From Escherichia coli (GTDB taxonomy: Bacteria > Pseudomonadota > Gammaproteobacteria > Enterobacterales > Enterobacteriaceae): a stretch of DNA of 64,000 nucleotides. A model generated the notes under the pieces. That model did not search any database, was not told where the DNA came from, and saw nothing but the letters and a program-made list of their open reading frames with translations. This document shows positions 20,468 through 21,128 of the stretch, piece by piece; position 1 is the first letter of the stretch; the number at the start of each line of letters is the position of its first letter. The stretch is taken from the NCBI RefSeq assembly GCF_024502345.1, contig NZ_JALDNN010000001.1; one strand, 5' to 3'. The translations under genes and the position numbers were made by a program.

Positions 20468-20734
20468 ATGGACATTAACAACAAAGCCCGCATTCATTGG
20501 GCATGCCGCCGTGGTATGCGCGAACTCGATATTTCAATCATGCCGTTTTTCGAACATGAGTACGACAGCTTAAGCGATGACGAAAAACGCATCTTTATTC
20601 GTCTGCTGGAATGTGACGATCCGGACCTGTTTAACTGGCTGATGAATCACGGTAAACCGGCCGATGCAGAACTGGAAATGATGGTCCGACTCATCCAGAC
20701 ACGGAACCGGGAACGTGGTCCTGTGGCAATCTGA
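20468..20734 (+). CDS. sdhE: FAD assembly factor SdhE (CptB antitoxin)
   Basis: 88 aa; contains the RGxxE motif (RRGMRELD). Confidence 0.92.
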
Positions 20735-21128
20735 TTTGCGCGTCTCCTGGCGCGCACAGTGGCTTTCCTTGCTGATTCATGGGCTGGTTGCCGCTGTTAT
20801 TTTACTCATGCCCTGGCCACTCAGTTACACCCCGTTATGGATGGTGTTACTTTCGCTGGTGGTGTTTGATTGCGTTCGCAGCCAGCGGCGTATTAATGCT
20901 CGCCAGGGGGAAATTCGCTTGTTGATGGACGGGCGTTTGCGTTGGCAAGGGCAGGAGTGGAGCATCGTCAAAGCACCGTGGATGATTAAGAGCGGCATGA
21001 TGCTGCGTTTACGTTCTGATGGCGGTAAACGGCAACATTTATGGCTGGCAGCCGACAGCATGGACGAAGCCGAATGGCGGGATTTACGGCGGATTTTATT
21101 GCAACAAGAGACGCAAAGATCAAGATGA
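20715..21128 (+). CDS. ygfX: inner membrane protein YgfX (CptA toxin)
   Basis: 137-aa ORF with GTG start overlapping the sdhE 3' end by 20 nt; two predicted TM segments. Confidence 0.85.

Follow-up and report, generated by a model that had tools for sequence, protein, structure and literature searches.

The gene pair sdhE (also named ygfY or cptB) and ygfX (cptA) is known from the reference annotation of Escherichia coli K-12, in which the two genes are numbered b2897 and b2896, and herein we have analysed the same pair in a stretch of E. coli chromosome of 64,000 nucleotides (nt) (hereafter the window, to which all coordinates refer). The K-12 pair and that of the window share the locus, the gene order, the GTG start of ygfX and a 20-nt overlap of the two coding sequences; over 800 nt, their DNA identity is about 99%. 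The two differ in that K-12 carries a TAA stop codon where the window has TCA, so that YgfX is 135 amino acids (aa) long in K-12 and 137 aa in the window; there are three further point differences, two of them silent in ygfX and one in the ygfX-fldB spacer. The operon junctions of the ATGA and TGATG types resemble sdhE-ygfX in the same-strand arrangement and in a start codon located just 5' of the upstream stop, leaving no room for a free-standing ribosome-binding site, but such junctions usually overlap by 1 or 4 nt instead of 20 nt. Unlike these junctions, the sdhE-ygfX pair carries six SdhE codons and seven YgfX codons that are dual-coding and visibly co-constrained, and we infer coupling for it.

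Among the type IV toxin-antitoxin systems, the defining one is CbtA/CbeA (YeeV/YeeU), of which CbtA is a soluble, prophage-associated accessory protein. Unlike CbtA, YgfX belongs to the core genome and is a membrane protein with a predicted PH-like domain, and its partner SdhE has an independent housekeeping function in enzyme assembly; no sequence relationship between CbtA and YgfX was found, and none was expected. The interference of CbtA/CbeA with FtsZ and MreB polymers has likewise been reported for YgfX/CptA (PMC8621075, PMC3985639), and the E. coli pair was published as the CptA/CptB type IV toxin-antitoxin system (Masuda 2012, as cited in PMC8621075, PMC3985639 and PMC11205521). The sdhEygfX operon of Serratia sp. 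ATCC 39006, like the pair of the window, encodes SdhE followed by the membrane protein YgfX from co-transcribed genes; its SdhE flavinylates succinate dehydrogenase and fumarate reductase, and its YgfX reportedly forms multimers and binds SdhE (PMC5042078).

With a probability of roughly 0.85, we read the sdhE-ygfX pair as a conserved, vertically inherited core operon of E. coli, in which YgfX is translated from the GTG at 20715, probably at low level and in coupling with sdhE, and is likely a partner of SdhE rather than a dedicated toxin. The pair, the overlap and the GTG start are already known from the E. coli reference annotation, and the toxin claim is already debated in print; not previously known, and minor, are the conservation statistics described below and the prediction that YgfX has a PH-like fold whose first strand is encoded by the overlap. 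An initial annotation of the window had named sdhE and ygfX, the RGxxE motif of SdhE, the 20-nt overlap and the GTG start, and all of these hold after reading of the sequence and comparison with family models and RefSeq. It had also described the GTG start as unusual, which overstates the case since GTG is the annotated reference start. RefSeq gives identical overlapping coordinates for E. coli O121 RM8352 and for K-12 (b2897/b2896), and the YgfX entry with the same coordinates is WP_000244778.1. This O121 protein also carries the longer form of YgfX.

Conservation of the sdhE-ygfX junction

The two genes are on the same strand, ygfX starting 20 nt ahead of the final base of the sdhE stop, and the ygfX frame is +1 relative to that of sdhE. 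Of 5426 complete E. coli genomes, 5425 matched a 1-kb query of the locus, the median copy number being one, and the 56-nt sdhE-ygfX junction is identical in 5049 of these 5425 genomes (93%). The remaining genome gave no match, and one E. coli record has its match on a replicon that is labelled a plasmid.

For comparison beyond E. coli, a genome scan with a 12-sequence alignment, which returned only Enterobacteriaceae, gave 80 loci from different Enterobacteriaceae species with YgfX identities of 73-99%, and eight diverse members of the family (hereafter the distant loci) were traced to their contigs by exact-protein look-ups. In the window, in the 80 Enterobacteriaceae loci and in the eight distant loci, ygfX is located directly 3' of sdhE on the same strand. 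All 80 species have the GTG start, an overlap of 20 nt and the TGA stop, and all 80 have T as the third base of the sdhE Arg83 codon (CGT), though any CGN encodes arginine. In 39 of the 80 species, an in-frame stop codon lies 7 codons 5' of the GTG, with no intervening start codon.

The mean entropy at third codon positions of sdhE, calculated after leaving out one locus (L058), is 1.06 bits for the gene body (codons 2-77), 0.30 bits for codons 78-82, corresponding to the 16 nt 5' of the GTG, and 0.11 bits for the overlap (codons 83-88). Codons 78-88 are the lowest 11-codon stretch of the gene, and the drop relative to the gene body gives a Mann-Whitney p of 1.5e-6. Both reading frames are almost invariant within the overlap, and synonymous variation of ygfX resumes at codon 8, directly past the overlap. 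This pattern argues for purifying selection on the junction beyond the needs of either protein itself, and the conservation in 80 of 80 species together with the drop in entropy indicates that the calling of open reading frames (ORFs) did not produce the overlap by accident. In the locus left out, from Enterobacter sp. EA-1, the sdhE frame is disrupted near its 5' end (about 1254-1300), with stops in the expected frame and an intact junction; this disruption is probably a sequencing error or the mark of a pseudogene.

Among the distant loci, the GTG within CGT-GGN and the 20-nt overlap are kept in Providencia alcalifaciens (39% YgfX identity), in Mixta theicola (38%) and in three further homologues with YgfX identities of 52%, 44% and 29%. 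Pantoea carries CGC at that arginine codon, which makes the ygfX triplet GCG instead of GTG, and the GTG called as its start is located two codons upstream, giving a 26-nt overlap. Two distant loci have no overlap: in L083, sdhE is three codons shorter and is separated by a 1-nt gap from ygfX, which starts with GTG and has a clearer GGAAG upstream, and in L090 the gap is 30 nt and ygfX starts with ATG downstream of the Shine-Dalgarno (SD) sequence GAGGG. The YgfX proteins of both loci still begin 1-3 residues before the conserved Trp (L090: MWQIQLRIS). In a 40-sequence alignment of the YgfX family, conservation of Trp4 and Ser11 extends to sequences of about 25% identity, and since the proteins of the non-overlapping L083 and L090 begin at much the same place, the conservation of YgfX residues 2-11 is no mere shadow of the SdhE frame. 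The Pfam profile PF07254 (Cpta_toxin) begins at YgfX residue 2, right after the Met encoded by GTG, and YgfX of the window matches it with high significance (7e-50; 169 bits against a cut-off of 27.3), residues 2-131 corresponding to positions 1-132 of the 133 in the profile.

An AlphaFold2 model of YgfX, built with the 40-sequence alignment, has a mean predicted local distance difference test (pLDDT) score of 94.2. As in the family at large, the prediction for YgfX is a small protein that spans the inner membrane with two helices and has its C-terminal domain in the cytoplasm (for the segments see Table 1). Because DSSP calls a strand only when it has a partner, and because the aligned length exceeds the 75-residue C-terminal part, the N-terminal strand (residues 2-8) probably completes the PH-like sheet; if it does so, the seven overlap-encoded residues would be structurally required, which would favour GTG. 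A Foldseek search with YgfX gave nothing significant, and the sequence identity in the fold comparison was 9-19%; the likeness of fold is a resemblance only, from which no function should be drawn, and the first strand seems to be set apart by an inserted transmembrane hairpin. The GTG start, which the initial annotation had considered in need of confirmation, is thus favoured by the comparative and structural evidence, and on these grounds both the start and the overlap appear strongly supported.

Probable translation of ygfX from the sdhE message

Judging from the GTG start, the weak SD sequence and the lack of an internal promoter-like site, YgfX would be made at low level from the sdhE mRNA, and much of the ygfX initiation would probably be carried out by ribosomes that have just been translating or terminating sdhE, in other words by translational coupling. 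Co-transcription of sdhE and ygfX has been demonstrated in Serratia and in Shewanella (PMC5042078, PMC8621075). Coupling is a plausible interpretation of the overlap, towards which we lean without great firmness.

The only SD-like elements 5' of the ygfX GTG are GGAA at positions -12 to -9 and GGGAA at -6 to -2. The former is supplied by the codon for sdhE Arg79 (20702-20704), which is the rare codon CGG in 80 of the 80 Enterobacteriaceae species, an invariance suggesting that selection acts on a weak ribosome-binding site and not on SdhE. The ATG start of sdhE is backed by Ribo-RET, INRI-seq and an N-terminal peptide in the supplement to PMC13245402. A promoter scan of 20150-21250, set to strong sigma-70 consensus sequences only, gave no site inside sdhE or upstream of it. 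The divergent ygfZ-sdhE spacer of 242 nt (20226-20467) must hold the promoters of both genes, and the sole -10-like element recognised there by eye is TACAAT at about 20428-20433. The ygfX GUG is included in a small RNA hairpin in E. coli, which is not significant (z = -1.65). A start-masking RNA structure was considered as a conserved feature and rejected, on this value and on the consensus energy given below.

Several points weigh against our reading of the locus. The best anti-SD pairing 5' of the ygfX GTG, -4.3 kcal/mol, is equalled by 22% of random positions. An alignment of 21 sequences over the ygfX start gave essentially no conserved RNA structure (consensus, -1.84 kcal/mol). The promoter scan is weak evidence because it also missed the sdhE promoter, which must exist. 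For the start itself, there is no ygfX entry in the searched parts of the TRAINSPOTTER (which lists sdhE), INRI-seq, TetRP and ribosome-signature supplements. Reports that YgfX is toxic and that SdhE rescues the cells exist both for E. coli (Masuda 2012, as cited in PMC8132199) and for the Acinetobacter homologue (PMC8132199). Finally, the sequence appears to fit both coupling and independent initiation at a weak internal site, and the frozen sites 5' of the GTG would equally fit a ribosome-binding site of ygfX itself.

It is possible, though we consider it doubtful, that ygfX is translated independently from such an internal ribosome-binding site in sdhE and that the overlap is a neutral frozen accident. 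In agreement with this, about 16 nt 5' of the GTG are under extra constraint, as for a ribosome-binding site, a start-masking RNA structure is not conserved, and the lineages without overlap, which are evidently viable, have the clearer SD sequences described above for L083 (GGAAG) and L090 (GAGGG). For an independent site, however, the SD pairing is weak and the spacing is poor, GGGAA ending 2 nt from the start and GGAA being 9 nt away, and the exact 20-nt geometry is kept while YgfX diverges to 29% identity. The conservation of geometry is in turn no proof of coupling, since any change there must satisfy two reading frames.

SdhE, YgfX and the toxin-antitoxin question

SdhE of the window matches Pfam Sdh5 (PF03937) at residues 7-79 (5e-26; 90.8 bits, cut-off 27) and, over the full length of residues 1-88, the NCBIfam SdhE equivalog (1e-59; 198.4 bits, cut-off 120). 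It also matches the solved structure of E. coli SdhE, PDB 1X6I (E = 8e-59, residues 1-88), together with PDB 6C12 and 6B58, the complexes with SdhA and FrdA. Near-identical SdhE proteins from K-12 and Serratia promote the covalent flavinylation of SdhA and FrdA (PMC5042078), and SdhE of the window would be a small soluble factor helping the covalent attachment of flavin adenine dinucleotide (FAD) to succinate dehydrogenase and fumarate reductase. As the Sdh5 domain ends at residue 79 and the overlap falls outside it, the tail of SdhE can be read as the sdhE frame running on to a stop; SdhE of the homologue locus L083 is without the RGPVAI tail. From the sequence, this tail looks like read-through into ygfX and not like a functional element.

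In the toxin-antitoxin interpretation, the pair is a genuine type IV module in which YgfX blocks the polymerisation of FtsZ and MreB, SdhE counteracts this effect, and the overlap keeps the antitoxin ahead of the toxin. We regard this as unlikely. It is in agreement with the E. coli publication introduced above and with the Pfam family name of YgfX, Cpta_toxin; the homologue of Acinetobacter baumannii is toxic in E. coli and is rescued by pre-induced CptB (PMC8132199), and the position of sdhE, which comes first and is likely better translated, resembles the logic of toxin-antitoxin operons. In Serratia, in contrast, a toxin-antitoxin phenotype was absent according to the citation of McNeil 2013 in PMC3985639, and an interaction between the SdhE and YgfX proteins was observed in the same work, which, if it holds, contradicts the type IV definition. 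In Shewanella, the ΔygfY mutant is viable, the ΔygfYX double mutant grows like ΔygfY, and the overexpression of YgfX is not rescued by YgfY (PMC8621075).

The distribution of the locus also stands against a dedicated toxin-antitoxin module. Besides its presence in the E. coli genomes as counted above, the locus is syntenic across Enterobacterales, ygfZ upstream and fldB-xerD downstream being conserved out to Providencia, Mixta and Pantoea, and the patchy or mobile distribution that is typical, though not strictly defining, for toxin-antitoxin loci was not found for sdhE-ygfX. The pattern is that of a vertically inherited core operon, unlike that of a typical mobile toxin-antitoxin locus. In addition, SdhE has a separate job that is structurally established by the complexes 6C12 and 6B58. 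PADLOC, which has no model for sdhE-ygfX, gave no hit. Small membrane proteins are often non-specifically toxic when overexpressed, and the toxicity of YgfX could be such an effect; an overexpression effect is in our view more likely than dedicated toxin action, and that YgfX is not a real toxin is a judgement. The description of the pair as a toxin-antitoxin-like module in the initial annotation is therefore correct as to what has been published, but as an interpretation it is contested by the lack of phenotype in Serratia and Shewanella and by the core, syntenic nature of the locus.

YgfX would most likely be a membrane partner of SdhE. As a more specific proposal, which we would entertain only with reserve, YgfX may be no toxin but a membrane-anchored PH-like adaptor with its first β-strand encoded in the sdhE tail, the overlap, fixed throughout the order Enterobacterales, tying its synthesis to that of SdhE in time, place and amount, and may tether a small fixed fraction of SdhE near succinate dehydrogenase and fumarate reductase at the inner membrane, the effects on FtsZ and MreB being artefacts of overexpression.

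Shortened YgfX models and neighbouring elements

A start of YgfX downstream of the GTG, either at the TTG of codon 8 (20736) or at the ATG of codon 32 (20808), would leave no true overlap and would make the GTG a longest-ORF choice. The TTG sits 1 nt past the sdhE stop, the junction bearing it is the one identical in 93% of the E. coli genomes, the GTG is without proteomic or profiling support in the searched parts of start-site and N-terminomics supplements, and shorter YgfX proteins have been annotated elsewhere, of 97 and 114 aa in Providencia, 111 and 115 aa in Pantoea and 130 aa in Erwinia. Such a start is nevertheless very unlikely. Of the 80 species, just 1 has TTG at codon 8, the others having TTA, CTT, CTG, CTC, CTA or ATA, and the SD pairing upstream of the TTG at 20736 is weaker still (-2.2 kcal/mol). 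YgfX residues 2-7 are conserved in the homologues without overlap and Trp4 is conserved across the family alignment, residues 2-8 form a confident β-strand in the AlphaFold2 model, a start at ATG32 would delete the first transmembrane helix, and the invariant T at the third base of Arg83 is explicable only by the need for GTG. The shorter models would remove part of the first transmembrane helix, and their starts were probably mis-called in a way that avoids the overlap. The databases disagree on the YgfX start, entries of 136 aa for Providencia, 133 aa for Pantoea and 137 aa for Erwinia standing beside the shorter ones, and Mixta having entries of 131, 132 or 136 aa.

A programmed +1 ribosomal frameshift in the overlap, yielding an SdhE-YgfX fusion, can be dismissed: ygfX is indeed in the +1 frame of sdhE, and proteins of 166-217 aa with both Pfam domains are included in protein databases (P0002, P0003, P0005, P0008, P0014 and P0022), but no two of these share a junction and each is a singleton or near-singleton, as produced by assembly errors or sporadic indels; a slippery or stall motif could not be recognised in the overlap, and the GTG and its upstream region are conserved as a start site would be.

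The coordinates of all the features are listed in Table 1. The gene order in the window, after ORF reading and RefSeq, is trhA, ygfZ (minus strand), sdhE, ygfX, fldB (minus strand), xerD, dsbC and recJ. YgfX ranges from 132 to 140 aa among the 80 Enterobacteriaceae species, and its C-terminus, where the window and K-12 differ, is loosely constrained as judged from this spread. The inverted repeat at 21126-21155 has no T-run and was missed by the terminator scan; it is possibly a 3' hairpin common to the ygfX and fldB transcripts. Cleavage by RNase III has been reported in the cptA transcript (PMC6212723), and overlapping convergent 3' ends of ygfX and fldB could be its cause. An Rfam scan of 18000-24000 gave nothing in or beside sdhE-ygfX. 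Farther away, a sub-threshold match to Rfam naRNA4/CssrE was detected on the minus strand at 19185-19257 (35.1 bits against a gathering threshold of 59.5, E = 0.0015), spanning the short convergent trhA-ygfZ spacer and a few bases of the ygfZ 3' end; this is possibly an element of the repetitive extragenic palindromic (REP) type.

Table 1. Features of the sdhE-ygfX locus, with positions in the window
Feature	Position	Strand	Basis and remarks
sdhE (ygfY/cptB) coding sequence, FAD assembly factor	20468..20734	+	ATG 20468, TGA 20732-20734, 88 aa
ygfX (cptA) coding sequence	20715..21128	+	GTG 20715, TGA 21126-21128, 137 aa
Dual-coding overlap, 20 nt, GTGGTCCTGTGGCAATCTGA	20715..20734	+	SdhE ...R-G-P-V-A-I-stop; YgfX M-V-L-W-Q-S-D
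ygfX GTG start	20715..20717	+	Last two bases of sdhE Arg83 (CGT) and first base of Gly84 (GGT)
Shine-Dalgarno-like AGGAAG 5' of the sdhE ATG	20459..20464	+	Sequence reading; anti-SD duplex -4.3 kcal/mol
Presumed ygfX ribosome-binding region, ACACGGAACCGGGAAC	20699..20714	+	sdhE codons 78-82; GGAA -12..-9, GGGAA -6..-2
SdhE RGxxE motif, R15-G16-M17-R18-E19 (RGMRE)	20510..20524	+	Translation
YgfX residues 2-8, predicted N-terminal β-strand, mostly overlap-encoded	20718..20738	+	DSSP on the model, pLDDT about 93
YgfX predicted transmembrane helical hairpin, residues 12-31 and 36-62	20748..20900	+	AlphaFold2 secondary structure; segments hydrophobic
YgfX predicted cytoplasmic PH-like domain, six strands 65-112 and C-terminal helix 118-136	20907..21122	+	Predicted
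TCA (Ser136) in place of the K-12 TAA stop	21120..21122	+	Pairwise alignment with K-12; adds Ser-Arg to YgfX
Inverted repeat, 12-nt arms, 83% complementary, 6-nt loop	21126..21155		Occupies the 33-nt gap that separates the convergent stops of ygfX and fldB

The significance of the sdhE-ygfX pair beyond housekeeping is slight. Because it behaves as a core metabolic operon, genome surveys should be cautious about listing cptBA among toxin-antitoxin systems. A small lead on what YgfX does with SdhE may come from the PH-like fold predicted for YgfX, the first strand of which is in the overlap, and the clear comparative argument for GTG as the true start should be useful in view of the database models of YgfX from Providencia, Pantoea, Erwinia and Mixta that are shortened and inconsistent.

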